Position numbers and translations under genes: made by a program
Shown here: piece by piece, positions 27,459-45,477 of the stretch
How positions within the stretch are numbered: position 1 is the stretch's first letter
How the letters are laid out: the number at the start of each line of letters is the position of its first letter
Notes under the pieces: generated by a model
Database searches by the model: none
What the model was told of the DNA's origin: nothing
The model's input: the letters and a program-made list of their open reading frames with translations, nothing else
Assembly: GCA_016784385.1 (NCBI GenBank)
Contig: JADHUT010000003.1
Location: 2,923-66,922 of the forward strand
Reading direction: 5' to 3'
DNA length: 64,000 bases
Origin: Candidatus Microgenomates bacterium
GTDB taxonomy: Bacteria > Patescibacteriota > Microgenomatia > UBA8517

Positions 27459-27466
27459 GATTAATC

Positions 27467-28267: not shown

Positions 28268-29152
28268 CTAATTATACTTACTAGTCATATATTTCCAATA
28301 CCCAACAGGGAAATGAAGGGCACTAAAAAAACTCCAAAGAAATCCAGCAACGCCGTCGAGAACTCCCTTGTGTCTGAAATATAGAATTACAAATGTATAT
28401 ATTGGTTTGTAAACTGTGTATATCAAGAAACTCCAGATATTCTTTCTTGTTTTGTCTTTCTTTAGTTCTTGTGCTTTTAAATCAGTGTAGCGATTCATTC
28501 TAGCAAAATATCTTGTAAGTGTTGGGGAATCGTAATGCAGTAAATCATTTTCCAACCATCCTACTTTTCCATCAAGTTTGATTTGTTCATGCACACTAAG
28601 TTGCGGAAACTTGGCGTATCCATTTTTTACTAGTCTTATTACCCCGTCAGGGTAAACTCCTGCGTGTATTAGTGGCTTACCTAAAAACATATTTGCTCTT
28701 GGGAGAAAATATCCAACTACTTCTCCACTCTCCGTACCAATTGCTCCATCGCGCTGTTGTATTAGTTCCTGATGACGTTTAAAAAGTTTAGCTTTTCTTG
28801 AATTATTTACTTTTGGTGGTATCTTGTTTACTACTGCCAGGATTTCTCTTCCTAGTTTGGCAGTTACAACCTCGTCTGCATCAAGTTGCAGTATCCATTC
28901 CCCACTGGCTTTGTCTAGCGCCTTTTGTTTTGTGATATGAAAAATATTGTGGTGTGGTTCTAAAAATACTTTTGCCCCGTGACTTTTTGCTCTCTCAACA
29001 GTTTTGTCTGTTGAGTGCTCGTCCACAACAATTATCTCATCTGCGATATCGCTCACTGATTCCAAACATCTTTTTATGTTTTCTTCTTCATTCCGGGTTG
29101 CCAGTACTACAGACAACATGGGTTTATTTTTATTTGATTTATTCTTTGTCAT
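28268..29152 (-). CDS. Glycosyltransferase family 2.
   Basis: LSVVLATRNEEENIKRCLESV...EIIVVDEHSTDKT and a DxD motif in QLDADEVV. Confidence 0.75.
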   Translation of the reverse strand: MTKNKSNKNKPMLSVVLATRNEEENIKRCLESVSDIADEIIVVDEHSTDKTVERAKSHGAKVFLEPHHNIFHITKQKALDKASGEWILQLDADEVVTAKLGREILAVVNKIPPKVNNSRKAKLFKRHQELIQQRDGAIGTESGEVVGYFLPRANMFLGKPLIHAGVYPDGVIRLVKNGYAKFPQLSVHEQIKLDGKVGWLENDLLHYDSPTLTRYFARMNRYTDLKAQELKKDKTRKNIWSFLIYTVYKPIYTFVILYFRHKGVLDGVAGFLWSFFSALHFPVGYWKYMTSKYN

Positions 29153-30786
29153 TAATATTTTGGTAATAACAGATAAAATGCATTTGACCCGTTTGGATAT
29201 TTTACCAGTTTAGCAACCTCAAAGTTAGGTTTATGAAAAAGTCCATCGTATACACTAGGATTTACTACATACAGTACTCCATCAGCAGGCTGACTTTGAT
29301 ACTGGTCCCAATCAAACCTATATATACCAAAGGATGATACCAAGTTAGATGGACGGCTTTCAGTTTGGTTGTATTTAACTGTTTCTAAATACTCGGGTAG
29401 TGGTACTTTGAGATAATAAAGATAGAAAATGTAAGGTTGCATGAAAGCATCAGTCATATACACTCGATACAACACCTCTTCATTTTTTGTAAACTCAACA
29501 ATTTCTTTCATTCCATATACCCACTCTATTGCATATTTCTCTGCATACTCACCATAATAACTTTTCAAATAATTTCTGAAGGGGATTATCATTGCTAAAA
29601 CAATTAAAACAGAACTCAATACTCGGGCGTATTTATTTTTAAAAAGTGTGATTAACACAAACGCCCCATATGCAATAATTAGAGTCCAGCTTCCTGTCAA
29701 AAACATCGCCCTTGCTGCATGAGGCATATCACTACTAACCGCTCCCGGAAGTGGAGCAAGGAGTATCCATGCAATCAAAACCAGCATTTGTTTGTTTTTT
29801 TTAACCAACAACCTCCATAAAATTGCCAATAGTCCAACTATCAACAACGGCAAGTCTAACCAATAAAAAGTACCCACACTTTGGATTGAATGGCGAGGGT
29901 TTGAATCTCCTGAAATAAACAAAAACTCAGATTGAAAGTATTTTTTGTAACGACCAAATACGATCTCTGACATCCCAGACATTTCATTACTAGTTTTTTT
30001 ATAAATAGAAGTCTCTTCAATCTCATTTTTTGGAATTTGATTTTGCTTCAACCTCTCACCTCCCAATAACTGGGGTTTTATAAACAGTAGGCTTATAAAA
30101 AAAGCATAAATTGCCAGTCCACAAAAAAACTGTTTTTTGCTTTTAAGTAGTTTTTTAATATTAATAGTAGCCAAAAGAAGCACCAATGGTGGAGTTACAA
30201 CCTTTGCACTTTGATAAGTCAGCAAATCTATGCCAAAAAGTAAAAACGAAATCCAAATATAATTTTTTCCTTTGCTTCTCAATCCTTTGTAAAAAAGAAA
30301 GGTCCCTGCAAGAAAGAAAAATATCGCAAAGTTAAGCTCATGGTTAAATCTAGAAAACTGGATGTTGTAAGGAGATATTGCTAGAAAAAAACTTGCCAGC
30401 AGCCCCACTTTATCACTTTTAAATATCTCCCTTGCCAAAAAAAATATTGCGATTACATTCAGCACTCCAAAAAAAGCAGCAGAAGCCCTAGTTGCATAAT
30501 CATTAAGGCCAAATAGTCCTACAAAGGGAGCTGTCAGGTAAACATGTACAGGATTTTTGTCATCACCAAAAGACTTGAAAGTAATGGGGAGAGTTTTACC
30601 CCACTCATCTTTACCCCAATGAATAATAGTGTAAGCATTATAGCCAACTGATGCTTCATCCCATGTAATTGATGGTGGGTATTTATCCAACTGAACAAAC
30701 CTCGTCAGGATAGAAATCAATACTATTACGCCAAGCATTATATTGACTATCTTTTTACTACGCAGTAGCAAGCTTTGCTTATTCAT
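29152..30786 (-). CDS. ArnT/PMT-like (GT39/GT83-type) GT-C glycosyltransferase, copy 4 of a four-gene tandem array.
   Basis: ITWDEASVGYNAYTIIHWGKDEWGKTLPITFKSFGDDKNPVHVYLTAPF, the DE-loop signature of ArnT/PMT, with more than 10 TM helices. Shares a 1-nt start/stop overlap with its neighbours. Confidence 0.7.
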   Translation of the reverse strand: MNKQSLLLRSKKIVNIMLGVIVLISILTRFVQLDKYPPSITWDEASVGYNAYTIIHWGKDEWGKTLPITFKSFGDDKNPVHVYLTAPFVGLFGLNDYATRASAAFFGVLNVIAIFFLAREIFKSDKVGLLASFFLAISPYNIQFSRFNHELNFAIFFFLAGTFLFYKGLRSKGKNYIWISFLLFGIDLLTYQSAKVVTPPLVLLLATINIKKLLKSKKQFFCGLAIYAFFISLLFIKPQLLGGERLKQNQIPKNEIEETSIYKKTSNEMSGMSEIVFGRYKKYFQSEFLFISGDSNPRHSIQSVGTFYWLDLPLLIVGLLAILWRLLVKKNKQMLVLIAWILLAPLPGAVSSDMPHAARAMFLTGSWTLIIAYGAFVLITLFKNKYARVLSSVLIVLAMIIPFRNYLKSYYGEYAEKYAIEWVYGMKEIVEFTKNEEVLYRVYMTDAFMQPYIFYLYYLKVPLPEYLETVKYNQTESRPSNLVSSFGIYRFDWDQYQSQPADGVLYVVNPSVYDGLFHKPNFEVAKLVKYPNGSNAFYLLLPKY

Positions 30787-32186
30787 TAGAAATTTTCACA
30801 ACTCTTTGGAAAAGTATAATTTCCAAATGATGCCACAGTAGAAAAACCCCAATCTGAAACATCATTCAATACCTTCGTGCTTATAAAGTCATTGGAATTA
30901 ACCCTATTGTAAAACAATGCAAAAATGTAGGGTTGTGCATATTCATCACTCACACAACCTCCTTCACTACTCTCAAAAATTTGCTTGTACTCAGATTGCC
31001 AAGCACTTGAAGACAAATCATTATAAATAGTTCCAAATTTATAAAAATATCCTTCGAAAGATAATAAATACAAAGCAATAACAACCACCATTACTAACCT
31101 TTTTTGACTTTTAAAGCGCTTAAGCAAAAAATAAATACCCATCGCAGAAATTGTAACCAACACAGGAGACAAAAATATTACCCTCAGTGCATGTGGACTC
31201 TCTCTTGTAATGGCTGCAGGTATTGGAGCTAAAATTAAAGCTATTAAAATATACAAAATTTTAAAGTCTTTTCTTTTAAATATATAAATCAACCCCAGCA
31301 ATATAAACACACTGTCCAATAAATAAAGTTGTGGACTACCCGGCACTTGGCTTCTGGGGTTTGTGTCTCCATTAACAAACAAAAAGTCTGGGGAATAATT
31401 TTTGAAATAATTACTTACTAAATTTTTGGTTGTCCCCACAGTTTGTAGCCTACTAAGGCCGGAATCTTGAGAGTACAACTTATAAATTGGAATCAAACTT
31501 GCCAGTATCAAGAACGCAGAAAACAGCAGTAACAACAGTTCATTTTTTTTACTTTTCTTTTTTCTAGTTGAAAATGCAAAACTAATTAAAATTGGACCCA
31601 GAAACAGCGGAGTTAATATTCGAAAACTATTATAACTGTATGATGACGCCAGAAAAAAAATAACTGAAGGGATAATCAACCATTTTTTATGGTCTGATTG
31701 CAGCCAGAAAAATATTGCCCAAAGAAAAAAGGCCAGTCCTGCAACTGCTTCATAACCAGTTCTTGAAAATATTAAAAACCAAGGAGTAATGGTAAACAAA
31801 AACGAAGAAAGAAGAGAAATTGTTTTACTTTTGGTTAAGTTCATTACAAGCAAATAAAGTCCCAGTACTGAGAAAAATCCATAAATAACTGAGGGAAGTC
31901 TCACCGCAAAAGCAGTTAAACCAAAAATAGCTTCCGAAACCACAACTGAATAAACATAAACAGGAAGCTTAAACTCTCCAAAGGCTCTAAAGTGAAGTGG
32001 TAATACCTCACCCCACTCATCTTTACCAGTAGTTAAAACTGAATAGGCATTATAGCCAATGGAGGCTTCATCCCAATACAAGGATCCTGGAATCTCACTG
32101 ATTCTAAATAACCTTGAGAATAAAAACAACGAAAGTATTAAAATCAAAACAAAATTAGGTCTCAAAAAACTGATTATTTTCTTCAT
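30786..32186 (-). CDS. ArnT/PMT-like GT-C glycosyltransferase, copy 3 of the tandem array.
   Basis: LYWDEASIGYNAYSVLTTGKDEWGEVLPLHFRAFGEFKLPVYVY, a paralog of its neighbours. Confidence 0.7.
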   Translation of the reverse strand: MKKIISFLRPNFVLILILSLFLFSRLFRISEIPGSLYWDEASIGYNAYSVLTTGKDEWGEVLPLHFRAFGEFKLPVYVYSVVVSEAIFGLTAFAVRLPSVIYGFFSVLGLYLLVMNLTKSKTISLLSSFLFTITPWFLIFSRTGYEAVAGLAFFLWAIFFWLQSDHKKWLIIPSVIFFLASSYSYNSFRILTPLFLGPILISFAFSTRKKKSKKNELLLLLFSAFLILASLIPIYKLYSQDSGLSRLQTVGTTKNLVSNYFKNYSPDFLFVNGDTNPRSQVPGSPQLYLLDSVFILLGLIYIFKRKDFKILYILIALILAPIPAAITRESPHALRVIFLSPVLVTISAMGIYFLLKRFKSQKRLVMVVVIALYLLSFEGYFYKFGTIYNDLSSSAWQSEYKQIFESSEGGCVSDEYAQPYIFALFYNRVNSNDFISTKVLNDVSDWGFSTVASFGNYTFPKSCENF

Positions 32187-33919
32187 TGATTATCAACTAT
32201 CTCAAATGCCCCGTCCCCATTTAAGAAATTTACTCTTTCCAACACCTCTACATATTCAGGAAAATCTCCAGGTTTACCTATGAACAAAATCTTTTTATCA
32301 GAATTATCTTTTACAATATCATCATACTTTGATCCTTCATCCCCTAGATCTGGAAAATAATATTTATCAAACCGCAACACTCTCACCCAGTCATATGTTT
32401 CAAATCTTTCTAAATTAGAAATACTTTGGAACTTGGCAGGATCATACGCAAGATTAAAAAGTGTAAAAATATGCGGCTCCCCATAGCTCCTTGTAAAAGT
32501 AACTAGATCATATTTATCTTGGTTGTCTTTTATATACCCAACAACCTGTTTATTGCCATACTGCCAATCGCGTGAATAGCTGATTGGGTATTTAACAAAC
32601 AAACTGTTTAGGAAAATGTAGAAATTGACAGCAAACAAGACTGAACCAACAACCAATGTATTTTTAATTAATTTTTTACCAGCAATGCCGGCCAGGCTTT
32701 GCTTATTCTTTACATTTTTTGCAAAATAATATATACCAACTGCCGTCAATATTTGGTAAACAGGTACTGCAATCAGGGTTCTAAGAGCATTTGGAATACT
32801 GTCATTAGTCATTGAAACTGGAATGAAAGCTATCAGTAACCAAGGTAGTAGAATTTTCAAACTACTACTTTTTTTCTTCAGAAGTATATATAAACCATAT
32901 AACAAAAATGGAGCTTGGAACCAATAAAGCTCACCAACACCTTGAACATGGTGTTGTTTGTGGCCAGCACCGTCAACAAACAAAAAGTTTGGAGTAAAGT
33001 GTGTTAAATAATTTTTTGAAAAATAGAAAGTATTGTATGTATACCTATTGTTAATTAACTTATTTATGACAAATGGAAGTTTTGAATTATTTCTTCTCTC
33101 CTCTATTCTAGGAATTAGCCCTGCATCATCGGTAATGCTAACTAATTTATATCTAGCACTTGCTTCCCCTGAAAGAACAAATGGAATCAATGGGGCCATC
33201 AAAATTATCATCAACACTCCCGATATTAATGACCATTTTTTGTGTTTCCAAAAAAACTTTCTGTAAAAAATTGCAACTACCAAAAGAAACAATGGTGTAA
33301 ACACTCTGGCACTATTGTAAGTATAAATAGAAATAGCAAAAGGAATCATCGACAAAACAATCCATTTCAACTGTTTACCCCTACCTTTCAATCCCTTAAC
33401 CCAAAACCACAACCCCATCAGTATCCAAAACAACGAGAAAGACGATTCAAAAGAACCTCTTGTCAGTTGTATATGCCAAGGAGAAATTGCTAGTAAGAAT
33501 GCGGCCATCAAAGAAATCTTTTCTCTTTCTTTCCTCGATATTATTTTCAATTCCTTTTTAGGGAGGTTATTCAACATCTCTAAAAGCAGAAAATACAAAA
33601 GAAGAACTGACAGGGTTCCGTAAACCACAGGAGTAATCCTGACCCCAAACTCATTTAATCCAAATATAGCAATGCCAGGGATTGACCCGTATATTTGAGC
33701 AGGGAGTTTGTATTCTCCAAAGGATCTGAAATGTAGTGGCATAAACATTCCCCATTCATCTTTCCCGGTTTTTAAAATTGAGTATGCATTATATGCAATT
33801 GAGGTTTCATCCCAATTGAGAGATGGTGGAATTGAGGTAACTTTATAAACTCTCAAAAAAAAGCTTAAAGAAATGATTGCTAATAAAAAAAATTTAGTTA
33901 TTTTCGTGCTCATTATCAT
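32183..33919 (-). CDS. ArnT/PMT-like GT-C glycosyltransferase, copy 2 of the tandem array.
   Basis: LNWDETSIAYNAYSILKTGKDEWGMFMPLHFRSFGEYKLPAQIY. Overlaps its neighbours by 4 nt. Confidence 0.7.
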   Translation of the reverse strand: MIMSTKITKFFLLAIISLSFFLRVYKVTSIPPSLNWDETSIAYNAYSILKTGKDEWGMFMPLHFRSFGEYKLPAQIYGSIPGIAIFGLNEFGVRITPVVYGTLSVLLLYFLLLEMLNNLPKKELKIISRKEREKISLMAAFLLAISPWHIQLTRGSFESSFSLFWILMGLWFWVKGLKGRGKQLKWIVLSMIPFAISIYTYNSARVFTPLFLLVVAIFYRKFFWKHKKWSLISGVLMIILMAPLIPFVLSGEASARYKLVSITDDAGLIPRIEERRNNSKLPFVINKLINNRYTYNTFYFSKNYLTHFTPNFLFVDGAGHKQHHVQGVGELYWFQAPFLLYGLYILLKKKSSSLKILLPWLLIAFIPVSMTNDSIPNALRTLIAVPVYQILTAVGIYYFAKNVKNKQSLAGIAGKKLIKNTLVVGSVLFAVNFYIFLNSLFVKYPISYSRDWQYGNKQVVGYIKDNQDKYDLVTFTRSYGEPHIFTLFNLAYDPAKFQSISNLERFETYDWVRVLRFDKYYFPDLGDEGSKYDDIVKDNSDKKILFIGKPGDFPEYVEVLERVNFLNGDGAFEIVDNQ

Positions 33920-35418
33920 TCAATAATCAAAGTGTTTTTATCCTGCTGCATATTTTCAATATCGTCAGTAATAATTACATTACCATAAGTTTTTGGGAAG
34001 TAACCATATTGGGAAATAACCTCAACAGGATCAATACCTGCATATACTGGAAAACCATATTCTATGTTGTCAATTTTTGTAGACAAAACAACAGTTTCGT
34101 AGTTGTTTTTTTGTTCTAATGCCTCAAGAGTTGTTTCATATGCTCCCTTTGACCAAAAGCCGGCAAACTTATTAGGTGCTAAAAAGTAAACTGCAGACAA
34201 AACAAAAATAAGCTGAATTCCAATCAAACCAGCTGAAATCAAAACCATTTTTTTATTTAATTTTGAGAATGCATATGCAGTAATTAAGATAAAAGGTGGA
34301 ATCATAAAAGCATTTCGAAGTCCGTGGGTTTGACCTAAAAACATTGTGGCCAGTGGAACTATTAGAATCCATTTAACTAAAAACAAAAACTTATTTTTAT
34401 CATTTTTGAAGATTAAATATAGTCCTGCAAACAGAAGTGGTAATTCAACTAAATAAAACATTCCCCATTCTCCTGGATTGTGTCGTGGATTTCTATCACC
34501 CCTAAGATATAAAAAATCGAGAGAAATATTCTCCATGTAATTATCCAAAAGTAGCCGGGAGTAATTGAGTGGCTTGTTATAAAATATTGGCCTGATTAGC
34601 TCAGGTAATGTGGACATTTCTCTTTCACTATTCACTTTTTGAATAATACTTTCCTTAGTGGCTGAATCTGAAAAGATGTTAAGTCTTAAAAACCTCTCCT
34701 CACTTGTTCCTTTTAGGGTTTCATTAACAGATAACCCACCAAAAATTGCCAATATAACTACGGAAATAATAAATAATTTGTTTTTTAAAATTTTTATGTA
34801 ATTAGTCTTTGTTGTTGATCCACTAAAAAACAAAAGGACTAAAAAGATAAATGGTAGGGTCAGTTTAAAAGTTGGATAGGTAAATATTGCCAAACCCCAC
34901 GCAATTGCCATTGGGATATATTTTTTGTACAAGAACATAACTACTCCAAAAGTAGCTAAAAACAATGCGAAATGTGCTTCAAACCCCCCTCTACTTAAAT
35001 AAATGTCCCAAAGTGAAATTGATGTCAAAAAAGATGCAATTAACCCCACTTTCTCACCAAATAACTTCCTGCCCAGAAAATACATCAACACAATCATCCC
35101 CAGACCTGAAATAATCGATAAACCCCTAACTCCCCAAGCTGTTGGCCCAAAAAGAGCTACAAAAGGAATCGAGCCATATACATAACCAGGAGGCCTTCCT
35201 GCTCCCATCTTAAAGGTAACGGGCAAACTTTCTCCTGTTTGGTCCTTACCTGTCTTTAAAAGTGAATAGGCGTCGTAAACTATTGTTAATTCATCACCAT
35301 AAAGAGGCATTGAGTTTAATTTATAAGCGGAGCTTGCAAGGTCTGCGACCTTATAGACTCTGAGCACAAGTCCCAATACAAGAATGCTCAGAATTAATAG
35401 TATAGATTTTCTTCTCAT
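33916..35418 (-). CDS. ArnT/PMT-like GT-C glycosyltransferase, copy 1 of the tandem array.
   Basis: YGDELTIVYDAYSLLKTGKDQTGESLPVTFKMGAGRPPGYVY. It is the first gene of the four-gene operon. Confidence 0.65.
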   Translation of the reverse strand: MRRKSILLILSILVLGLVLRVYKVADLASSAYKLNSMPLYGDELTIVYDAYSLLKTGKDQTGESLPVTFKMGAGRPPGYVYGSIPFVALFGPTAWGVRGLSIISGLGMIVLMYFLGRKLFGEKVGLIASFLTSISLWDIYLSRGGFEAHFALFLATFGVVMFLYKKYIPMAIAWGLAIFTYPTFKLTLPFIFLVLLFFSGSTTKTNYIKILKNKLFIISVVILAIFGGLSVNETLKGTSEERFLRLNIFSDSATKESIIQKVNSEREMSTLPELIRPIFYNKPLNYSRLLLDNYMENISLDFLYLRGDRNPRHNPGEWGMFYLVELPLLFAGLYLIFKNDKNKFLFLVKWILIVPLATMFLGQTHGLRNAFMIPPFILITAYAFSKLNKKMVLISAGLIGIQLIFVLSAVYFLAPNKFAGFWSKGAYETTLEALEQKNNYETVVLSTKIDNIEYGFPVYAGIDPVEVISQYGYFPKTYGNVIITDDIENMQQDKNTLIIE

Positions 35419-35442
35419 GTATTAATTGTATATAATTTAATC

Positions 35443-37831: not shown

Positions 37832-37848
37832 TTTATAATGTTTTTTAT

Positions 37849-39078
37849 CTAATCCTTTTTCTCAGACAATAGTTTATATGAAATTACACCAGCACCACCT
37901 GCAAACAAAGTATGTAATATGCTTTGAAAGTTATATGGATCATAGAACTTTTCCATTACAGCAAAAGGGGTTGGGAGTAAATCATACCAAGTTGTATAAA
38001 TCCTAAATAGTGAAATTGTCATGTTTCTATCTTCATACAAAAGTGGAATTGCAAGTGCAAGCATACAAAGAAGAACCACAGGCCAGGTCAATTTACTGTT
38101 TTTAACAATTAGTATCAACAAAAATGGTGCTATCCAAAGCAGCCATGAGATATGAAAGTGGGAGAATGAAAAAATAATTAATAAAAACACTACCCAATAA
38201 TTAAATAGGTTAATGTCCTTTTTGTGTAGCCATACAGAGAAAAACAAAGCGGAAAGAATCAGCAGTCCCATCATGATTGACTCACCGAATCCAACTAATA
38301 TGCCTGGGTTAAATATTCTTGTAGTAAGACCAGATACCAGGGCTGACTGAACAAAAGCTGTAGACCAAAATGGAACTATCGTCAAAAATAGTATAAACAA
38401 AGGAATCAACACTGAAAGAATCTTTTGTTTGGTGTTTTTTGCTTTCAAAAAAATGAAAGGCAAGAAAATTAAAGGATATGCTTTAAAACAAGCTGCAAGT
38501 CCCAGAAATACTAATGCACTAAGCAGTTTCTTTCTTTTTAGAAAGAGAAAAGCTACTAGTGTTAAAAATACACTATAAATATCAATGTTGGAAAATGCGT
38601 AAATTAAAATTATTGTAAATGGGTTAAATAACCAGAAAGTAAAAGCTTTTTCTTTGTCTTTTTCATCCTTAAAAAATTTAAGCAACAAAAATGCAATTGC
38701 AATATCCACAACCAACAAAGGAAATTTCAAAAAAATCAGGTACCAAAAGATGTTTGGGTCTGTAACTGATGTGACAGAGTCTGCATTTGCTAGCCAGTTA
38801 TCCAAACCTTGCCCCAAAAGAGGTGAAACAATTGCTTGGTATCCTCCAACCACAAAGTAGGACAATGGAAAATATACAAATTCTTCCTTTAAAGGAAGGC
38901 TCATTCTATTTTCAATTAAATAAGGGTAAATATTAACTACCCCTTTTTTCAAAAAAGAGGATTGGAAGTTGAATGTTTTGATATCTGGGTGATACAAAAA
39001 TCCAGAGACCAACAACCTCAAGACAATTGCTAAAAACAATATTTTAAGTCTGCCCTTTTTAAATATACCTTCCTTCAT
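37849..39078 (-). CDS. Polytopic membrane protein, a putative GT-C-like (DUF2029/GT87-type) glycosyltransferase; a paralog of 39078..40337.
   Basis: 409 aa with about 11 TM helices. N-terminal YHPDIKTFNFQSSFLKKG compares with YHSDVVPFDFAGRVL in the neighbour. The two genes share a 1-nt start/stop overlap. Confidence 0.45.
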   Translation of the reverse strand: MKEGIFKKGRLKILFLAIVLRLLVSGFLYHPDIKTFNFQSSFLKKGVVNIYPYLIENRMSLPLKEEFVYFPLSYFVVGGYQAIVSPLLGQGLDNWLANADSVTSVTDPNIFWYLIFLKFPLLVVDIAIAFLLLKFFKDEKDKEKAFTFWLFNPFTIILIYAFSNIDIYSVFLTLVAFLFLKRKKLLSALVFLGLAACFKAYPLIFLPFIFLKAKNTKQKILSVLIPLFILFLTIVPFWSTAFVQSALVSGLTTRIFNPGILVGFGESIMMGLLILSALFFSVWLHKKDINLFNYWVVFLLIIFSFSHFHISWLLWIAPFLLILIVKNSKLTWPVVLLCMLALAIPLLYEDRNMTISLFRIYTTWYDLLPTPFAVMEKFYDPYNFQSILHTLFAGGAGVISYKLLSEKKD

Positions 39079-40337
39079 TAAATACTCTCCGATCTTTTAG
39101 AAAAATGATAGTAAACATAATACAAACTGACCCCGACAAAAATAGTATGAAAAATACTTCTCAATGTATTTATATCTGGATTCATTCCCATTAGTTGCCA
39201 CACCCCAGGAAGGCCATAAAGCGCAGGATTAATAGGAGAGAACAACCAGACAGTTAACCCTGGGTCAAAGAAAGTAATGAGAGCTATAAAGCTAAGTAGT
39301 GACACTGCCACAAGAGGCCAGTGCTTGAAATTTGATTTAACCAGGTCTATCACAAAAAATGGCATAATCCACAAAAACCATTGAGGGTGGTAGTGGGTAA
39401 AAGTAAAAAATATAAGCATCATAACAAAAAATCTTTTCCACAAATTTTCGGCAGAACTATTCCTGTAAAGAAACACAAGATAGAAAAACATAACTACTGC
39501 TAGAAAAAGTATTATTGATTCTCCTCCAGAGATAGGAATTTGAGCATATAGACTCTTCGTAGTCTGACCAGCCAAAAGTGCAGTTCTTCTAAAGCCAGCG
39601 GAGCCAATAAAAGGAAATGCTGCCACAGCGTAAGTCAATGTTCCTACAGCTACTATTTTAATCCTGCTCCACCAATCTTTCTTAAGAAGGGCCAATGGAA
39701 CAACAAACAAAAGTGGGAAGATTTTAAAAGCAGCTCCCAAACCAAGAAGCATTGCACTTGGCAACAAACTTACATCCTTCTTGTCTCTTTTTTTAAGTAC
39801 AAGAGCTAGTGCTGCTACTGTCAAAAATGTCGGTATTATGTCGAACTGCCCCAACATGTAGGTTGCATACAAATTAACAGGATTAAACAGCCAAAGTCCG
39901 AACGCCCATATCTTTTTCTTCCTGTCTTTGAAAAATGACATCAAAAGAAAAGCGGTAGCAATATCAAAAATAAAATAAGGAAGCTTTAGAAGCAATAATA
40001 GTAAATTTAGTTGAATGTTGCCCAATGTTGAGGGAAAATCAAGAAGAAAATTGTCATGTACTTGCGGGTTTACCATCCAAGTGGTTAATAGAGATGCTCC
40101 ACCAAGGAAAAAATATGTTAGGGGTGGATAATTAAATAAATTTCTAGGGTAAACTCCTAAATAAGGGTGATCTTCAGGGAGTTCCCATAAATAATCATAA
40201 AAAGTGGTGATTTTAGTTTCAGTTAACACTCTCCCTGCAAAATCAAAAGGTACTACATCAGAATGATATGTTGTAAAAGAGAGAAGTACCCGCAAGAGTA
40301 CCGCAATAATTAAAATTTTAGATATTACTTTTTTCAT
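39078..40337 (-). CDS. Polytopic membrane protein, a putative GT-C-like glycosyltransferase; a paralog of 37849..39078.
   Basis: 419 aa and multi-TM, with an architecture similar to its downstream neighbour. Confidence 0.45.
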   Translation of the reverse strand: MKKVISKILIIAVLLRVLLSFTTYHSDVVPFDFAGRVLTETKITTFYDYLWELPEDHPYLGVYPRNLFNYPPLTYFFLGGASLLTTWMVNPQVHDNFLLDFPSTLGNIQLNLLLLLLKLPYFIFDIATAFLLMSFFKDRKKKIWAFGLWLFNPVNLYATYMLGQFDIIPTFLTVAALALVLKKRDKKDVSLLPSAMLLGLGAAFKIFPLLFVVPLALLKKDWWSRIKIVAVGTLTYAVAAFPFIGSAGFRRTALLAGQTTKSLYAQIPISGGESIILFLAVVMFFYLVFLYRNSSAENLWKRFFVMMLIFFTFTHYHPQWFLWIMPFFVIDLVKSNFKHWPLVAVSLLSFIALITFFDPGLTVWLFSPINPALYGLPGVWQLMGMNPDINTLRSIFHTIFVGVSLYYVYYHFSKRSESI

Positions 40338-40339
40338 TT

Positions 40340-42025
40340 TTAATCGCTTTTAAACAAATCTTCTTTAGATAGTATTACTATACAAGCTCCAAGTGACATT
40401 ACCGATACAATGTCTAGCAAGAGTCTCATTGTCGACTCACGATACTCAACCTCTACTACGTGCGTTCCAGCTGGAACAGTAATTGTAATTTGACCGAATG
40501 GCTTACCCGCAATAATTTCTGTACGTTTACCATCAATTTTGGCCACCCAGCCTGGATACATATATTTTGTGTAATATAGTTCAAATTCATACTCACTGTC
40601 AGTAATTATTTTAGCATCCAAAGCGCTTTTTTCCTCAATCCTCAAGATTGCGGCTGAATCCGTATATGCTCTTTTGTAAAGCTTGTCTGGTCTTTTTTGG
40701 GTGGCCTTAGGCAGTCTTAAATATTCTTCAGATGTTTGCTTGTAAGCATCACTTGCAGTACCTTTTGGAATATATCTATTTATGTAGTAAGCATCTTCTC
40801 TTCCTAGATATTCGCTGGTTTTGAAGTATTTAAAATTAAGTAGTATTGAAAATAAAATTACAAAAAAAGAGATCAATACTGAAAAATTCTTTTTGTTTTT
40901 GAACAACTTTGCAAATACAAGCAAAAATAAAGGACTAGCAAAGCATATCATCACCAAAAATCTCCAAGGGAATTGAAAATAGGGTAAAAGCGGCAAGTTT
41001 TCCCACAAAAAAGCAGACCTGTGGTTCATCATAAAAATACTTGCAAAAAATATCACTGTTCCCCAAAGCAAAAATATTTTTTCTTCTAATGAAAAGATTT
41101 TGTACTTTTTCACAAAAATGATACTACCTAGAAGTACCACTGCTAATCCAGTAAAACCCATATAAAAAGACATTGTGTCGTAAGGGCCTGGGACTGATGC
41201 TCCGTAACCAAAATAAGGAGTTATGAATTGTCTCAAAGTGGGGAAGTGGTTATAGAAATTAAAAACTGTGTCATATTGCATTAACCGACTTTCCAAAATA
41301 GCCGGAAACCAAAAATATATCGAGGTGAGTAGTCCCGATAAAAGTCCCCAAAAACTTCTACTAATTGCCTCTTTTTTATCTTTAGAAATCCATATAATTC
41401 TTGCTACAACAAAAATAAGTAAAAATGGCATGAACATATATGCCATAATATTGTGCGACAGAACAAGTGCAGCGGTTGAAAGCCCTGCAATTCCTACCCA
41501 TTTAAAAGATTTCTCGTTACTTGTTAATTTTATGAAAGAAAGAGTAATTAGCGGGAGGAAAACAAAAGCAACTATCTCCCCTATCGTTCCCCTAACGAAA
41601 ATTTCCAAAGCTCGGTACGGAGCATATACATATAGTACTGCACCTGCCAAAGACATCTCTCTAGCCATAAATTGCCTGAGCAGCTTGTACATAAAATACA
41701 TTGAAAATGGAATTGATAGACCAAAAACAATCTTCACACTACCAACTAATGAAAAACCAATTAAATGAAAAGCTTCTGCTATATAAAATGGCAGTGGATA
41801 TACAAAACTGAAAAGTGGATAACCAAATCCAAAACTAAGATCAGGTACATACCTTGGTGGGAACTGCAGCATCTTAACTACTCTGTCCATCTCAAAAAGC
41901 CATCCTATGTGTAAGTCATCAGAAACTCCGAAGTAACCATCAACAAATAAATACCTCACAGCAGGAATAGATAAAAGCAATATTATAAAATACAAATATT
42001 TCTTTACAAAATTCACTTTTTTCAT
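40340..42025 (-). CDS. YfhO/COG5617-like polytopic membrane protein (putative GT-C glycosyltransferase), copy 3 of a three-gene paralog array.
   Basis: GYFGVSDDLHIGWLFEMDRVVKMLQFPPRYVPDLSFGFGYPLFSFVYPLPFY is conserved with the two upstream paralogs. The C-terminal beta-rich domain ends in a final TM helix. Confidence 0.5.
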   Translation of the reverse strand: MKKVNFVKKYLYFIILLLSIPAVRYLFVDGYFGVSDDLHIGWLFEMDRVVKMLQFPPRYVPDLSFGFGYPLFSFVYPLPFYIAEAFHLIGFSLVGSVKIVFGLSIPFSMYFMYKLLRQFMAREMSLAGAVLYVYAPYRALEIFVRGTIGEIVAFVFLPLITLSFIKLTSNEKSFKWVGIAGLSTAALVLSHNIMAYMFMPFLLIFVVARIIWISKDKKEAISRSFWGLLSGLLTSIYFWFPAILESRLMQYDTVFNFYNHFPTLRQFITPYFGYGASVPGPYDTMSFYMGFTGLAVVLLGSIIFVKKYKIFSLEEKIFLLWGTVIFFASIFMMNHRSAFLWENLPLLPYFQFPWRFLVMICFASPLFLLVFAKLFKNKKNFSVLISFFVILFSILLNFKYFKTSEYLGREDAYYINRYIPKGTASDAYKQTSEEYLRLPKATQKRPDKLYKRAYTDSAAILRIEEKSALDAKIITDSEYEFELYYTKYMYPGWVAKIDGKRTEIIAGKPFGQITITVPAGTHVVEVEYRESTMRLLLDIVSVMSLGACIVILSKEDLFKSD

Positions 42026-42053: not shown

Positions 42054-42061
42054 AATTTTTA

Positions 42062-43777
42062 TCATTGCCATTCTTTTTTTCTTTTAAGTAGTCCTATAAA
42101 CCATCCTATGCTGACAATTGTTATTATATTAGAAATTGTTCTCAATGGTGTATTTTTAAATCTTCCTTCTATTTTGTAGTCACCTTTGTCTAGTGTTACA
42201 GAAATTCTCCCCAATAAATTATCATGTGTTGAGGGGTAACTCTTGCCATCCACTTTAACTTCCCAATTGGGAAAATAGTAAACAGGTATGTGTATCTCTG
42301 ATAATTCACTTACCTCTGCCTTAAATTCCCATCTATTAGAACGGTTTTTAAAGTCAACAACACTTGCCTCCCCTGAAATGACAAGTGGAGCCTCAGGTGC
42401 TGCTTCTCTTGGCTCTAGAGCAGTTTTAGGTAGGTAATCTAGTATTGCACCGCGTCTTTGTTGTTCCCACAGCTCTCCTGTCAATTTTTGTTTGCTGGTA
42501 ACATCAAAAAACTCACGAGGTTTAAAGTAACTCCAATTTAAAATCACTGTAGATACAATCACTATGATTGCAAAAATCTTTTGCCATTTTTTCTTTACAG
42601 AAAATATGACAAATCCACCCAATATGGATGCAGAAAAAACAGTAAGAGATAAAAACCGCCAGGGAAATTGAAAAAATTGTAGTATTCTAAAGCTCTCCCA
42701 AACAAATGTAGATTTATTGTGTGTCATTAGTACAGAAACTATGAATGTCCCCACAATTCCAACCACTAAAACTTTTGTAGACTTTCTAATTTTGGATGTA
42801 AATATTGTCCTGGAAAAAAATAGTGAAACGGCTGAAAATCCTACCAACAACCAGTATGGCCAACCCACTTGAAAAGACATACCTCCTTCTGGGCCTGGTA
42901 TTGAAGTTCCATAACCCCACGCCCGATCAAAAAAGAGTTGCTTGATACTTATAAAATTAGCTCTGTAATCCAATTCAAACCTAGTTAAGCTTTCAGTTTG
43001 GACCAATTCTTTTTCAAAAAAAGCAGGAAAAACAAAAAAAGATGACAAACCAATAGCCAGAAGAGTAGAGATAACAATAATTTTTACACTTTTCCATTTG
43101 GTTGCAAATAGCCAGTAAATTATCCACACTATTAAAATCGGCAAAAATATAACAGTCATTATATTGTGTGTAATAAGGAAGAAAAACAAGGTGAGAGTAG
43201 AATAAAAGAAAATATTCTTTTCTCCTGGTTTCGTAATCAACTTTAGAAAAAAGTAAAAGACAAAAGGAATTAGCGCCAAGCCCATACTCTCAGACAAAGC
43301 CCCTCGAACGTAAATATCTAGTGCTTTATATGGTGCAAAAAGATAAAGTATGGCTGCTGTAATCCCTGCATATTTTCCCCAAAGTTCAGACACTAAAAAG
43401 TACATACCAAAACTCCCCCCCACTAAAGCAATTAAGAAAAGGAGTTTCGATGCTGCCAAAAAGCCCATAAAATAGCTCAATATTGCTCCTAAATAGTAAG
43501 GGAAGACTCCATAAAAGTTAAAAAGCGGATAGCCGTTCCCCCACCCCATGCTCGAAACCCATCTACAGGGAATTTGACCATCGGCAAAACACTTTCTCAT
43601 TTCAAAAATCCTAATTACTTGCAAATCATCTTGGTGAGAAAAATAACCCCCTCGCAACAGTGGCCAAGCAACAGAAAGACCTAAAATTGTAATCAAAACT
43701 AATTCCCAATGCTTACCAACAAAGTTGACCAAACTACGTTTATTTAATAATTTTTTAATGCTTTGCAGTTTATTCAT
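42062..43777 (-). CDS. YfhO/COG5617-like polytopic membrane protein, copy 2 of the array.
   Basis: GGYFSHQDDLQVIRIFEMRKCFADGQIPCRWVSSMGWGNGYPLFNFYGVFPYY. It contains a G7 homopolymer in the coding sequence (43415-43421). Confidence 0.5.
   Translation of the reverse strand: MNKLQSIKKLLNKRSLVNFVGKHWELVLITILGLSVAWPLLRGGYFSHQDDLQVIRIFEMRKCFADGQIPCRWVSSMGWGNGYPLFNFYGVFPYYLGAILSYFMGFLAASKLLFLIALVGGSFGMYFLVSELWGKYAGITAAILYLFAPYKALDIYVRGALSESMGLALIPFVFYFFLKLITKPGEKNIFFYSTLTLFFFLITHNIMTVIFLPILIVWIIYWLFATKWKSVKIIVISTLLAIGLSSFFVFPAFFEKELVQTESLTRFELDYRANFISIKQLFFDRAWGYGTSIPGPEGGMSFQVGWPYWLLVGFSAVSLFFSRTIFTSKIRKSTKVLVVGIVGTFIVSVLMTHNKSTFVWESFRILQFFQFPWRFLSLTVFSASILGGFVIFSVKKKWQKIFAIIVIVSTVILNWSYFKPREFFDVTSKQKLTGELWEQQRRGAILDYLPKTALEPREAAPEAPLVISGEASVVDFKNRSNRWEFKAEVSELSEIHIPVYYFPNWEVKVDGKSYPSTHDNLLGRISVTLDKGDYKIEGRFKNTPLRTISNIITIVSIGWFIGLLKRKKEWQ
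43415..43421 (-). repeat. G7/C7 homopolymer inside the YfhO-like GT-C gene 42062..43777.
   Basis: aactcccccccactaaag. The coding strand encodes ...ALVGGSFGMY... Confidence 0.55.
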
Positions 43778-45477
43778 TTCTCTCTTTTCTTTAAATGCTC
43801 ATTTTTAGATATCAACCACACCAATATTATTATACTAGCTACTGTTATCAAGTTCCCAATTGACCTCACTGGAGTGTTTGTTAATTTGGCTTCAACACTG
43901 TGTTCCCCTTTTGGCAGTTTGAAAGTAATTAAGCCGTAACAAAACTCCTCACCTCTACAATCATCATTGTAATGATCCACCACTTCTCCATCAACACTTA
44001 CCTGCATACCAGGGAAGTCGTAAAGGGGTAGACGGATGGTTGCATCTTCAGATACCTTGATTATTCCGTTTTGAAAATTACTACCCTTTTTATACTCAAC
44101 CACCTGTACACTGCCGTCCATTATTTCAGGCAATAGTGGAGCTTCTGTAATTGGAGGGAACTCTGCATAAATTGGCAAATAATCAAAAATGCTTATTGTC
44201 ATTTGCTTTTGCCATGAAATTCCAGAAAACTTGTCCGCATCGGTTATATCAAGCCAGTCTTTTGGAACAAAGAAACCAATGTTTAAAATAATTGCCGACA
44301 AAATTAATACTCCCCCCAAGGCGTACTTAATCTTTTTAGAAAAATGTACTGCAAGTCCTCCCAAAAGAGATAGTAAAAATATACTGACTGACAAAAATCT
44401 CCAAGGAAATTGTAACCACCAAAGAGCGGGTATTTGGGCCCATATGAAACTTGATTTCATATGAATCATAAACAAAACTAGTAGTTCGAGTCCTCCTAAA
44501 ATGAGTATTAAATTTATTAGTTTTTTCTCCTTTTTATTCTTTTTGTAATTAAATATTCCCAAAACTACAGCCACTATTCCAACTATCCACTGAATAAGTC
44601 CTGTTGAAAGATTTAAAAGTTCATCGGGAAACCCAGATGATCCATAACCCCACTCTCTGGAAATAAATAGTTTATACAAACTTACAAAATGAGCTCTATA
44701 ATCAAAATAACCTGACAAAATAGAATCTATATGGGTGAATTTAGCCTCAAATAAAACCGGAAGAGTGAAAAAAGCAGCTAATCCAACTCCAAATAATCCA
44801 AATAATCCAATCCTCAGCAATAATCTAATCTTTTTTTCTACAACAGCCCAATAAATAGCCCAGACAATTGCAACTGGTGCAAAAATCAAAGTCATTAAAT
44901 TGTGTGTCAAAAGAAGTAGAGACAAAAAAACTGAAAACCAAATAAAGTATTTCTTTTTTTCAGTTTTTATTAATTTGTACAAAGCCCATAAAATTACCGG
45001 AAACAAAGGTAGTGCCCAAAATTCACTCATAGCACCTCTAACATAAACCTCCACTGCTTTGTAGGGAACGTAAGTGTATAAAACTGAAGAAACAAAACCA
45101 GGCCAAGAGCCAAGAAGCGATTCAACAAGTACAAACATTGCTAAAGCGGAAAATATGTAGCCTGCTACAAACAAAATTTTTACGACATCTATGTATTGAA
45201 AACCAACTCTGTGCAATACTGCACCAACATAATATACAGAAGGAGGATAGAAGTTGAACTGTGGATAACCATACCCATAACCCGCATCAGGAACCCAACG
45301 ACAAGGAATTTGGACGTCTCTGAAACATTTATCCATCTGTTGAATCCTAAAAGCTTGTAAATCATCTTGCATTGAGTAGTATCCAGGACGAAGTAAATTC
45401 CAGGTTACTGGAATCGTAAATATAATCACCAAAACTATCCAAACAAGCCTTTGTCTATTTTTGAATACTTTTTTCAT
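43774..45477 (-). CDS. YfhO/COG5617-like polytopic membrane protein, copy 1 of the array.
   Basis: GYYSMQDDLQAFRIQQMDKCFRDVQIPCRWVPDAGYGYGYPQFNFYPPSVYY. Overlaps copy 2 by 4 nt. Confidence 0.5.
   Translation of the reverse strand: MKKVFKNRQRLVWIVLVIIFTIPVTWNLLRPGYYSMQDDLQAFRIQQMDKCFRDVQIPCRWVPDAGYGYGYPQFNFYPPSVYYVGAVLHRVGFQYIDVVKILFVAGYIFSALAMFVLVESLLGSWPGFVSSVLYTYVPYKAVEVYVRGAMSEFWALPLFPVILWALYKLIKTEKKKYFIWFSVFLSLLLLTHNLMTLIFAPVAIVWAIYWAVVEKKIRLLLRIGLFGLFGVGLAAFFTLPVLFEAKFTHIDSILSGYFDYRAHFVSLYKLFISREWGYGSSGFPDELLNLSTGLIQWIVGIVAVVLGIFNYKKNKKEKKLINLILILGGLELLVLFMIHMKSSFIWAQIPALWWLQFPWRFLSVSIFLLSLLGGLAVHFSKKIKYALGGVLILSAIILNIGFFVPKDWLDITDADKFSGISWQKQMTISIFDYLPIYAEFPPITEAPLLPEIMDGSVQVVEYKKGSNFQNGIIKVSEDATIRLPLYDFPGMQVSVDGEVVDHYNDDCRGEEFCYGLITFKLPKGEHSVEAKLTNTPVRSIGNLITVASIIILVWLISKNEHLKKREK

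Follow-up and report, generated by a model that had tools for sequence, protein, structure and literature searches.

In mycobacteria, lipomannan, lipoarabinomannan and arabinogalactan are assembled by PimE, MptA/B/C, EmbA/B/C and AftA-D, together with Ppm1 and DprE-derived lipid donors; the GT-C enzymes draw on polyprenyl-phosphate sugars and work in succession on one envelope glycoconjugate at the outer side of the membrane. The eukaryotic and archaeal N-glycan pathway combines ALG enzymes of the GT4 and GT2 families, an RFT1/Wzx-type flippase, DPM1/ALG5, the lumenal GT-C enzymes ALG3/9/12/6/8/10 and STT3/AglB. Where characterised, PimE/Mpt enzymes, PIG-V and YfhO have lipid or polymer acceptors, while a D-E motif in loop 1 is a typical feature of the PMT family.

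The DNA analysed here (the window) is a stretch of 64,000 nt from Candidatus Microgenomates bacterium (GCA_016784385.1, contig JADHUT010000003.1, 2,923 to 66,922 of the forward strand). A description of this locus was not found in the searchable literature and, as a first-pass annotation had stated, no single described pathway has its composition.

GT-C-type membrane proteins of the window

The first-pass annotation had counted 17 large multi-TM proteins with GT-C-like features, and coordinates, topology and families all agree with this count. The 17 ORFs lie where they had been placed, each is polytopic (7-11 TM segments, Kyte-Doolittle) and, by sequence or fold comparison, all are homologues of the GT-C superfamily. 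Of the 57 ORFs that reach 150 aa or more they account for 17, and they total 26,730 bp (41.8% of the window), a density far beyond what chance would give.

10496..12697, minus strand: PMT_2-type singleton, 733 aa (PF13231, 32.5 bits)
22791..23945, minus strand: PIG-V/GT76-like GT-C, 384 aa, 8 TM; homologues carry PF04188
29152..30786, minus strand: A1, PMT_2/PMT-type GT-C, 544 aa, at least 7 TM, loop-1 WDE (PF13231, 52.6 bits; PF02366, 37.5 bits)
30786..32186, minus strand: A2, PMT_2-type GT-C, 466 aa, WDE motif (PF13231, 33.1 bits)
32183..33919, minus strand: A3, PMT_2-type GT-C, 578 aa, WDE motif (PF13231, 28.9 bits)
33916..35418, minus strand: A4, PMT_2-type GT-C, 500 aa, GDE motif variant (PF13231, 29 bits)
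35443..37281, plus strand: B1, GT-C without a Pfam model, STT3/PglB/AglB-like fold, core gene of the lineage
37849..39078, minus strand: C1, GT87/MptA-B-like GT-C, 409 aa (33% identity to C2, E 3e-50)
39078..40337, minus strand: C2, GT87 (PimE/Mpt-type) GT-C, 419 aa (PF09594, 38.5 bits)
40340..42025, minus strand: D1, PMT_2/DUF6541-like GT-C, 561 aa, SDDL motif (PF13231, 27.6 bits)
42062..43777, minus strand: D2, PTPS_related (YfhO-like clan) GT-C, 571 aa, QDDLQ (PF10131, 51.3 bits)
43774..45477, minus strand: D3, PTPS_related/YfhO-like GT-C, 567 aa, QDDLQ (38% identity to D2, E 8e-118)
49525..51072, minus strand: E1, distant PMT_2-like GT-C, 515 aa, YxDQxRD, 9 TM
54666..56435, minus strand: B2, paralogue of B1, 589 aa (29% identity, E 2e-78)
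57876..59429, minus strand: PMT_2-type singleton, 517 aa, conserved VDE motif (PF13231, 41.8 bits)
60209..61729, minus strand: E2, PMT_2-type GT-C, 506 aa (PF13231, 38.8 bits)
62714..63982, minus strand: PMT_2-type singleton (PF13231, 32.2 bits from profile position 28; weak STT3 match)

Profile searches matched glycosyltransferase families (PMT_2, PMT, GT87 and PTPS_related), as had been anticipated, and Pfam transporter families gave no match among the 17 proteins. The PMT_2 profile exceeded its cut-off in nine of them (A1-A4, D1, E2 and the singletons at 10496, 57876 and 62714). C1 and C2 belong to GT87, C1 with a weak precomputed match to PF26314 (MptA_B). The D array had been called YfhO-like; this holds for D2 and D3 (in D3 both PF10131 and PF09586 match below threshold), but not for D1, which is PMT_2/DUF6541-like by Pfam. 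E1 shares 22% identity with E2 over 500 aa (E 3e-15). The protein at 22791 has no direct Pfam match and is assigned through homologues at 47-62% identity with PF04188 (PIG-V/Mannosyl_trans2), some of them with PF13231. A weak discoidin-like C-terminal domain is found in the protein at 10496 (PF00754, E 0.0055). The singleton at 62714 is a GT-C as proposed, of PMT_2 type, but not a complete ORF: its frame is open to base 64000, so the window end cuts its N-terminus.

In each GT-C family the loop that follows TM1 retains an acidic motif, and the Lys/Arg-rich N-termini place this loop outside the membrane. A WDE first-loop motif had been attributed to all four A proteins; WDE(A/T)S(I/V)xYNAY is present in A1-A3, while A4 carries a GDE...YDAY variant whose GDE is invariant across its orthologues. 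WDE also occurs at residue 43 of the protein at 10496, and the HPD motif in loop 1 of C1 is invariant. The motifs said to be shared within the other groups are likewise present: GY(F/Y)xxxDDL(Q/H) and GYPxF(N/S)F in D1-D3, HDGxWHIAL and NPxFAGExLxNYH in B1 and B2, and YxDQxRD and FYYY in E1 and E2. The A array is tightly overlapped, as described, and the overlaps of 1-4 bp at gene junctions within the arrays suggest that the genes are expressed together.

Partner genes and lineage-wide conservation

The following neighbouring genes bear on the function of the GT-Cs.

9566..10495, plus strand: GT2c, full-length ArnC/GtrB-type polyprenyl-phosphate glycosyltransferase (E 3e-43 to ArnC, residues 6-294)
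18895..20856, minus strand: X18895, DUF3863-like domain protein, secreted or anchored; in other genomes this domain is fused to B2-like GT-Cs
21529..22803, minus strand: Wzx1, second MOP-family flippase (PF01943, 73.9 bits)
28268..29152, minus strand: GT2e, soluble GT2 at the head of the A array, position conserved (PF00535)
37256..37831, minus strand: X191, membrane-anchored beta-sandwich, CBM-like protein, conserved convergent neighbour of B1
51069..54638, minus strand: GT4e-GT2h-GT2i-GT2j, block of cytoplasmic glycosyltransferases (Pfam and synteny)
56368..57849, minus strand: Wzx2, MOP-family lipid-linked oligosaccharide flippase (PF13440, 193 bits, 13 TM)
59426..60187, minus strand: GT2k, ArnC/DPM1-like catalytic domain, candidate polyprenyl-phosphate sugar synthase (phmmer)

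GT2c ends in two TM helices (236-254 and 264-282), and GT2k matches ArnC (9bhc, E 1.4e-15) and Dol-P-Man synthase (5mlz, E 1.4e-13). The locus holds about 11 GT2, five GT4 and one GT10 gene, the two Wzx flippases, sugar dehydratase, epimerase and aminotransferase genes and five methyltransferases, a co-location which agrees with the earlier proposal of a dedicated surface-glycan system. Profile searches and the ORF survey found neither an initiating phosphoglycosyl transferase nor a Wzy-type polymerase in the window, nor was a GtrA/ArnEF-type small flippase gene found there; as the window is 96.5% coding, it has no space for the latter. Missing these three functions, the pathway that we draw is incomplete within the window.

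The B family is closest in fold to the catalytic subunits of OST. B1 matches STT3, PglB and AglB best, and also AftA, AftB, AftD, PimE and EmbA, and it has an AglB-like C-terminal globular domain. B2 adjoins Wzx2 in 41 of 45 loci. Fusions of X18895-like and B2-like proteins account for 37 of the best 150 representatives, and one contig only carries a triple fusion of Wzx, X18895-like and B proteins; the X18895 profile matches PDB 3lm3 (E 6.7e-8), with DUF3863 matches in five of 12 members. The GT4e-GT2h-GT2i-GT2j block accompanies B2, Wzx2 and B1 in Daviesbacteria-type loci, GT2h adjoining GT4e in 32 of 36 loci.

For each of A1-A4, B1, C1, C2 and D1-D3, a one-to-one orthologue is found in 20-33 of 34 Woesebacteria-type genomes, and the gene order is retained. 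Median identity to the orthologue is 45-66%, vs. about 30-38% to the next paralogue. Orthologues of A1 were found at 24 loci (median identity 45%), of A2 at 25, of A3 at 29 (66%, the highest conservation within the A array), of D1 at 25 (65%) and of D2 at 24. A4 adjoins B1 in 55 of the 61 loci having both genes, and GT2e adjoins A1 in 18 of 22. Among 54 species-level Microgenomates loci, the 21.8 kb comprising B1 and 10 kb on either side contain 5-13 GT-C genes (median 9). In Daviesbacteria-type loci the same GT-C families are rearranged, yet still clustered.

Proposed assembly route and alternatives

Judging from gene content and synteny, we consider it reasonably likely that the locus encodes a lineage-conserved envelope-glycan assembly of Microgenomates (Woesebacteria-type), in which the 17 GT-Cs would be ancient steps, each retained individually, of one or a few glycosylation pathways outside the cytoplasm. 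At the inner membrane face, about 17 cytoplasmic GT2, GT4 and GT10 enzymes, together with enzymes that modify nucleotide sugars, would build lipid-linked oligosaccharides, which the two flippases, assigned by family, would bring to the outer face. GT2c and GT2k, by homology to ArnC/GtrB/DPM1-type enzymes, are predicted to place single sugars on polyprenyl phosphate. Outside the membrane, the A, C, D, E and singleton GT-Cs would use these lipid-phosphate sugars, each responsible for one fixed linkage on the growing glycan or on its acceptor, by analogy with mycobacterial lipomannan, lipoarabinomannan and arabinogalactan assembly and with ALG3/9/12/6/8/10 in the ER lumen. Finally, STT3-fold B1 and B2 may transfer or ligate the flipped glycan en bloc, a role suggested by the genomic ties of the B family to Wzx2, the DUF3863-like domain and the CBM-like anchored protein. 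The outcome is probably one complex cell-surface glycan built by an old, fixed gene set, and conserved synteny favours one or few fixed products. Sequential action on one product is what co-conservation and operon structure suggest, and parallel action on several acceptors would have the same appearance. Possible acceptors are an S-layer protein, a pilin, a lipoglycan and a wall polymer.

The first-pass annotation had instead seen a tandem expansion that generates many different surface glycans. On this model, duplicated paralogues would come to differ in their extracytoplasmic loops, the glycans displayed could change, and strains would differ in copy number. We regard this as quite improbable, and for the core arrays it is already largely refuted. 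Paralogues are only 22-38% identical (A2 30-32% to A1 and A3; D1 27-28% to D2 and D3), so the copies are ancient and none stems from recent duplication; each has a single orthologue at the same place lineage-wide, and contigs from several samples with an identical D2 protein have identical neighbours. Neither did the expected diversification of the loops appear: paralogue identity is 0.21-0.41 in TM-like columns and 0.27-0.40 in non-TM columns, and in orthologues loops are conserved as much as TM segments, or more. What speaks for it among the paralogues is limited to indels, which lie mainly in loops, and a drop in identity from the N- to the C-terminus, with the C-terminal thirds less conserved. 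Variation in copy number was seen at one slot, between A3 and A4, the sole one to gain or lose copies, where depending on the species 0-5 extra genes are found (PMT_2-like genes, GT2 genes and unassigned ORFs, mostly polytopic). In addition, C2 and a B2-like gene alternate between loci in the position after C1, and in two relatives a DUF2079 protein occupies the place of the gene at 22791.

It is also unlikely, in our view, that the PMT_2 enzymes work in parallel in protein O-glycosylation, each moving a single sugar from polyprenyl phosphate to Ser/Thr of different secreted proteins (S-layer, pilins, adhesins) and not cooperating on one polymer. A1 exceeds the Pfam threshold for PMT, which the singleton at 57876 misses by 0.1 bit (22.6 vs. 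22.7), the D-E motif is found in loop 1 of the A family and of the singletons at 10496 and 57876, GT2e and GT2j have the protein glycosyltransferases GmaR and SunS as closest solved structures, and ArnC/DPM1-type donor synthases are at hand. However, the GT87, PIG-V-like and PTPS_related/YfhO-like families act on lipids or polymers where characterised, the presence of two Wzx flippases together with about 17 cytoplasmic glycosyltransferases points to oligosaccharide building, and the window has no candidate Ser/Thr-rich substrate gene; a shared pathway is the better fit for four PMT_2 genes that are tightly coupled in translation and conserved jointly. We likewise hold it to be very improbable that some or many of the 17 are non-transferases (GT-C-fold scaffolds, polymerases, ligases or other membrane proteins) which inflate the number of steps. 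Several Pfam scores are barely over threshold (27-33 bits), and B1, B2, E1 and the protein at 22791 have no direct Pfam match; against this, the acidic residues of loop 1 show little or no variation in nine orthologue groups (A1-A4, C1, C2 and D1-D3) and in B1, transporter families are unmatched and the top fold matches are catalytic GT-Cs.

Comparison with described systems

B1 resembles Campylobacter PglB and archaeal AglB (GT66) in that its first outer loop conserves an acidic residue, and B2, adjoining a Wzx-type flippase, recalls PglB with PglK in the pgl locus. Unlike GT66 enzymes, the B proteins have no sequence-level match to STT3 (Pfam STT3 unmatched), B2 lacks a WWDYG-like motif, of which B1 has only a WDW variant, and B1 has two additional N-terminal TM helices; the DUF3863-like and CBM-like (X191) partners are not known from OST systems. 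With the N-glycan pathway the locus shares the joining of GT4/GT2 enzymes, MOP flippases, DPM1/ArnC-type synthases and multiple GT-Cs, along with the fold of B1 and its small AglB-type C-terminal domain, but its GT-Cs match no ALG family by sequence and nothing in it indicates Asn-linked products.

Compared with the three-component systems (GtrA/GtrB/GtrC, CsbB-GtcA-YfhO and ArnC-ArnEF-ArnT), the locus has no GtrA/ArnEF-type small flippase and sets 17 GT-Cs against just two recognisable donor synthases. Like them, it has GT2c end to end with the PMT_2 GT-C at 10496, DPM1-like GT2k between two PMT_2 GT-Cs, and a D array in YfhO-related families.

In mycobacteria the GT-C genes are dispersed across a genome of 4 Mb, whereas here 17 lie within 64 kb and the whole genome is put at about 1 Mb, from the size of two related Woesebacteria chromosome records (0.98 and 1.08 Mb). 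The organism, a member of the candidate phyla radiation, is not known to have an envelope of the mycolate type. Genes for phosphatidylinositol mannosides or arabinose donors did not turn up in the locus, and its families differ from the mycobacterial ones, with PTPS_related, PIG-V-like and B proteins. What it has in common with lipomannan, lipoarabinomannan and arabinogalactan assembly in mycobacteria and corynebacteria is the combination of multiple GT87 and ArnT/PMT_2-type GT-Cs with a DPM1-type GT2.

Glycan genes and predicted donor supply of the window

The window comes from a 71.5-kb metagenome contig. Its G+C content is about 33%, 96.5% of it is coding, nearly all genes lie on the minus strand, and its proteins are annotated by NCBI as hypothetical proteins. 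Searches for RNA features in it returned neither tRNA genes nor Rfam families. It has 57 ORFs with a length of 150 aa or more, and their Pfam matches identify glycan-biosynthesis genes from one end to the other. The 17 genes for large membrane proteins which are the subject of this analysis occupy 26,730 bp, that is 41.8% of the sequence. Besides them, Pfam recognizes about 11 GT2 and 5 GT4 glycosyltransferases, one GT10 fucosyltransferase-like gene, three epimerase/dehydratase genes, one short-chain dehydrogenase, one DegT aminotransferase, five SAM methyltransferases and two flippases. The GT10 family is uncommon in bacteria.

Flippase and GT10 genes of the window (Pfam)
21529-22803, Wzx-type flippase (Wzx1)
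56368-57849, Wzx-type flippase (Wzx2)
1301-2275, minus strand, GT10-family (alpha-1,3-fucosyltransferase-like) gene, where the window's GC content is lowest (0.29)

Judged by their similarities, two of the GT2 genes would be expected to supply the membrane enzymes with polyprenyl-phosphate sugars. GT2c (9566-10495) aligns with ArnC along its entire length (E 3e-43), has further matches to GtrB and to archaeal Dol-P-Man synthase, carries two C-terminal TM helices as is usual in that class, and abuts the PMT_2 gene at 10496. GT2k (59426-60187) has an ArnC/DPM1-like catalytic domain and is flanked by two PMT_2 genes. An initiating phosphoglycosyl transferase, a Wzy-type polymerase and a small GtrA/ArnEF-type flippase were not recognizable within the window, whose only sizeable gaps are taken up by a toxin-antitoxin pair and by a cupin-like ORF of 133 aa. 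These functions are either encoded outside the window or replaced by unrecognized proteins.

Several other genes lie within the locus. A 403-aa protein encoded at 3916-5127 (minus strand), among glycosyltransferase genes, consists of two P-loop kinase-like halves, the N-terminal part being thymidylate-kinase-like. The 133-aa ORF (14238-14639, plus strand) is located immediately upstream of the DegT aminotransferase gene and gives weak cupin-type matches; it could conceivably be a sugar ketoisomerase-like protein. In the single ORF at 25644-27176 (minus strand), a VKOR domain with 4 TM forms the N-terminal part and is joined to a dihydroorotate dehydrogenase domain; homologues occupy the same neighborhood in three loci from relatives. 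The toxin-antitoxin pair, inside the glycan locus at 27201-27757 (minus strand), comprises an 85-aa toxin of the ParE family (PF05016, E 1.6e-7) and an antitoxin of 96 aa that resembles Phd/YefM but stays below threshold, and is flanked by the VKOR fusion gene and a PNPOx-like gene.

Family assignment of the 17 membrane proteins

The 17 polytopic ORFs described in the first-pass annotation were all found at their positions, each with 7-11 TM segments predicted from hydropathy, a crude predictor inclined to undercount; GT-C proteins are expected to have 8-13 TM helices. They comprise A1-A4 (a PMT_2 array, 29152-35418), B1 (35443-37281, plus strand) and B2 (54666-56435), C1 and C2 (37849-40337), D1-D3 (40340-45477), E1 (49525-51072) and E2 (60209-61729), and four single genes named here by their lower coordinates (10496, 22791, 57876 and 62714); gene 62714 exists where it had been placed, but is cut by the window end. 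The proposed glycosyltransferase families were largely borne out by HMM searches: 11 proteins score above a Pfam gathering threshold, nine of them for PMT_2 (A1-A4, D1, E2, 10496, 57876 and 62714), C2 for GT87 (PF09594, 38.5 bits, cut-off 25) and D2 for PTPS_related (51.3 bits, cut-off 26.4). C1, D3, E1 and B2 were assigned by paralogy, through full-length BLASTP matches to annotated partners (E 3e-15 to 8e-118), and 22791 through its homologues, most of which, at 47-62% identity, carry PF04188 (PIG-V type) in a precomputed table, while the window protein itself does not match PF04188 even at E 10.

C1 is placed in GT87 only through its similarity to C2 (33% identity) and through a weak match to MptA_B; D3 reaches 22.0 and 22.4 bits with the YfhO/PTPS_related models (PF09586 and PF10131), both below threshold; and D1 matches PMT_2, not PF09586 or PF10131. 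NCBIfam has no match for B1, B2, C1, E1, D3 or 22791, and a permissive Pfam scan of the same six proteins (E up to 10) added solely a weak GT87 match for C1. A phmmer search of PDB sequences with B1, 22791 and A1 gave no match.

Every family carries an acidic motif in the first loop: WDE, GDE or VDE in the A family, 10496 and 57876; HPD or HSD in C; SDDL or QDDLQ in D; HGHDG in B; and YxDQxRD in E. The motifs noted in the first pass were confirmed, A4 and D1 having slightly altered versions, and the acidic ones of A1-A4, C1, C2, D1-D3, B1 and 57876 are invariant or almost so among orthologues. The positively charged N-termini would place this loop outside the membrane. All 17 proteins can be classed as members of the GT-C superfamily of membrane glycosyltransferases, being polytopic, with an acidic residue in loop 1 and with similarity in sequence or fold to an established GT-C family. 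The ArnC/DPM1-type synthases and Wzx flippases in the same locus point indirectly to a possible use of polyprenyl-phosphate or -diphosphate sugar donors.

Gene order and divergence among relatives

We fetched 77 loci from species-representative genomes by alignment with B1, most of them titled Woesebacteria, Daviesbacteria, Microgenomates or Patescibacteria, and with two further loci added, ORFs were called in the resulting 79 and compared with the window proteins. In 34 Woesebacteria-type loci the order GT4d-SDR-GT2e-A1-A2-A3-(slot)-A4-B1-X191-C1-(C2 or a B2-like gene)-D1-D2-D3 is kept, where GT4d and GT2e are glycosyltransferases, X191 encodes a 191-aa protein (37256-37831, minus strand) and the slot is the gap between A3 and A4; precomputed gene calls for two relatives agree with this order. 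Of the 34 loci, 20-33 contain just one orthologue of a given window paralogue, at a median identity of 45-66%, the next-best paralogue being at about 30-38% (in the A family, orthology was judged by best versus second-best paralogue scores). Daviesbacteria-type loci hold the same families, reordered yet clustered, as in D2-D1-C2-D2-Wzx2-B2-B1-A4-GT2j-GT2h-GT4e-C2-A1-A3. Among the 54 loci of at least 21 kb, 5-13 GT-C genes (median 9) and additionally 0-3 unassigned polytopic proteins lie within ±10 kb of B1.

The array had been interpreted as a massive tandem expansion whose extracytoplasmic loops diversify. Protein identity to the nearest orthologues found is only 45-75%, which means saturated synonymous sites, and we therefore compared identity in TM-like and other columns instead of computing dN/dS. 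Between paralogues, identity is 0.21-0.41 in TM-like columns and 0.27-0.40 in the others, and the only differences between regions are indels and a slight fall in identity from the N to the C terminus; in orthologue alignments, conservation of non-TM positions equals or exceeds that of TM positions. Uniform divergence, which the first-pass annotation itself had opposed to its reading, is what the paralogue alignments of the core arrays display, and loop-specific diversification was rejected for these arrays. Nor does a recent expansion agree with paralogues that are only 22-38% identical within arrays and that have one-to-one orthologues in fixed order across Woesebacteria-type loci. Gene content varies at one point, the A3-A4 slot, where species differ in having 0-5 additional genes (PMT_2-like, GT2 and unassigned ORFs, most of them polytopic); the core arrays are fixed. 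As judged from these comparisons, the 17-gene set is neither a recent nor a diversifying expansion, and its dense paralogy therefore reflects ancient subfunctionalization plus one small variable module. As a methodological point, a dense paralogue array need not signal continuing diversification.

Some features of the loci deserve mention in their own right. A4 and B1 are divergent, and no more than 24 bp separate their start codons (35418-35443), so that the promoters of both genes must sit within coding sequence, and the convergent 3′ ends of B1 and X191 overlap by 26 bp (37256-37281). A Bro-N domain gene (45519-46334, minus strand) separates D3 from GT2f; Bro-N genes are typical of phages and mobile elements, and since GT2f directly follows D3 in five relatives, this gene looks like an insertion specific to this genome. 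In loci L007 (1-1368) and L008 (1-153) a DUF2079 membrane protein of 475-477 aa lies upstream of GT4d, where the 22791 gene is expected, which suggests that one membrane protein family may have been replaced by another. Twelve loci, of the Daviesbacteria type, contain additional ORFs, 750-826 aa long and predicted to have about 8-13 TM segments, that gave no BLAST match to any window protein and may represent a further unassigned membrane family of the cluster. Many species-representative MAGs with a Microgenomates-type locus are titled 'uncultured Gammaproteobacteria bacterium' (L009, L015, L016, L020, L022 and many others); L073 and L084 are also among the oddly titled loci, and one title reads 'Bathyarchaeia archaeon' and another 'Clostridia bacterium'. 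These titles are probably placeholders or wrong.

The B family and a possible route of glycan assembly

Within the set, B1 shows the strongest conservation: over their full length, the best 120 homologues listed share 63-75% identity with it, and none of these 120 carries a Pfam domain. A profile search of 1.84 billion representative proteins yielded 1,638 B-family members (869 at E up to 1e-30); the family counts about 1,600 clusters at 50% identity. The structural model of B1 has about 13 membrane helices, and B1 and B2 share the architecture of oligosaccharyltransferases (OST), a GT-C membrane domain followed by a C-terminal globular domain. In B1, Asp99 of HGHDG in the first outer loop is invariant and the motif IWDWFD of the C-terminal domain (residues 517-522, with W518-D519-W520) is near-invariant; B2 has MYLYES at the aligned place, without WDW. 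From these features, B1 and B2 look like OST-type GT-C enzymes and may work like them. Two marks of family GT66 are missing from their sequences: WWDYG is absent from the C-terminal domain of both proteins, and neither matches Pfam STT3 even at E 10, a profile search of PDB sequences with B1 giving chance-level matches and no OST.

Gene neighbors and fusions link the B family to other proteins. Of the 45 loci with a Wzx2 homologue, 41 have B2 next to it; B1 adjoins A4 in 55 of 61 loci and X191 in 37 of 43. The confident model of X191 (pLDDT 87) shows a beta-sandwich between an N-terminal anchor and a C-terminal helix, and its low-rmsd matches are carbohydrate-binding modules (CBM). Among the best 150 representative B-family proteins, 37 are fusions of 850-1,640 aa in which a domain of about 400 aa, homologous (21-40% identity) to the product of X18895 (18895-20856, minus strand; itself without annotation), precedes a B2-like GT-C. 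This domain is related to DUF3863 and to the uncharacterized structure 3lm3 (profile E 6.7e-8). One singleton contig joins Wzx2-like, X18895-like and B-like parts in one ORF. Adjacency and fusion together suggest that Wzx flippase, B-type GT-C, DUF3863-like domain and CBM-like protein may act jointly on a flipped glycan.

We consider it more probable than not that the GT-C enzymes are, in general, steps in the assembly of an envelope glycan; for the role of any individual enzyme our confidence is far lower. Lipid-linked oligosaccharides would be assembled in the cytoplasm and exported by Wzx, the PMT_2, GT87, PTPS_related and PIG-V-like enzymes would extend the glycan stepwise outside from polyprenyl-phosphate sugars, and B1 and B2 would transfer or ligate it en bloc. 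In the main rival explanation, several PMT_2 enzymes may be protein O-glycosyltransferases that work side by side, each with different substrates; sequence data would look alike under this scheme and under sequential action. Against the PMT model (PF02366, cut-off 22.7 bits) A1 scores 37.5 and 57876 scores 22.6, and the remaining PMT_2 proteins give no match; a D-E motif is present in loop 1 of A1-A4, 10496 and 57876. PMT_2 also covers ArnT-like enzymes, and a match to it does not therefore fix the acceptor class.

A bolder proposal, which we regard as unlikely, is that B1 and B2 form an unrecognized bacterial family of STT3-fold OSTs or ligases, the locus being the counterpart, in the candidate phyla radiation (CPR), of the eukaryotic and archaeal lipid-linked oligosaccharide pathway. 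After cytoplasmic synthesis and flipping by Wzx, the glycan would be extended outside by about a dozen GT-C enzymes with polyprenyl-phosphate sugars, and B1 and B2, assisted by the DUF3863-like domain and the anchored CBM-like partner, would finish with en bloc transfer to surface proteins or a wall polymer. If true, it would give bacteria outside Actinobacteria their first pathway in which GT-C enzymes extensively elaborate a glycan after flipping, and this pathway would be essential to the Microgenomates envelope.

Every enzyme class in the locus is already known, and the finding is not categorically new. A full-text literature search returned no title or abstract describing a GT-C supercluster in Microgenomates or other CPR bacteria, which is not proof of absence. 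What is new is the extreme density and lineage-wide conservation of a GT-C cluster in a reduced genome, a GT-C family (B) without a Pfam model and with a modelled OST-like fold, and its three predicted partners, the Wzx flippase, the DUF3863-like domain and the CBM-like protein, which are open to heterologous testing. With genomes of about 1 Mb, Microgenomates are believed to rely on other cells and, to our knowledge, have never been cultured. The block of 17 GT-C genes, about 27 kb, is kept across Woesebacteria and Daviesbacteria, and because so large a conserved block is retained in a reduced genome, a complex surface glycan would be central to their biology, with possible roles in attachment, envelope integrity and protection from phage and host. 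For glycomics of enrichment cultures, the locus supplies a defined set of genes. For the stepwise assembly of an envelope glycan proposed here, the two closest analogues are the GT-C network that makes mycobacterial lipomannan, lipoarabinomannan and arabinogalactan, and the ER pathway for the N-glycan precursor.
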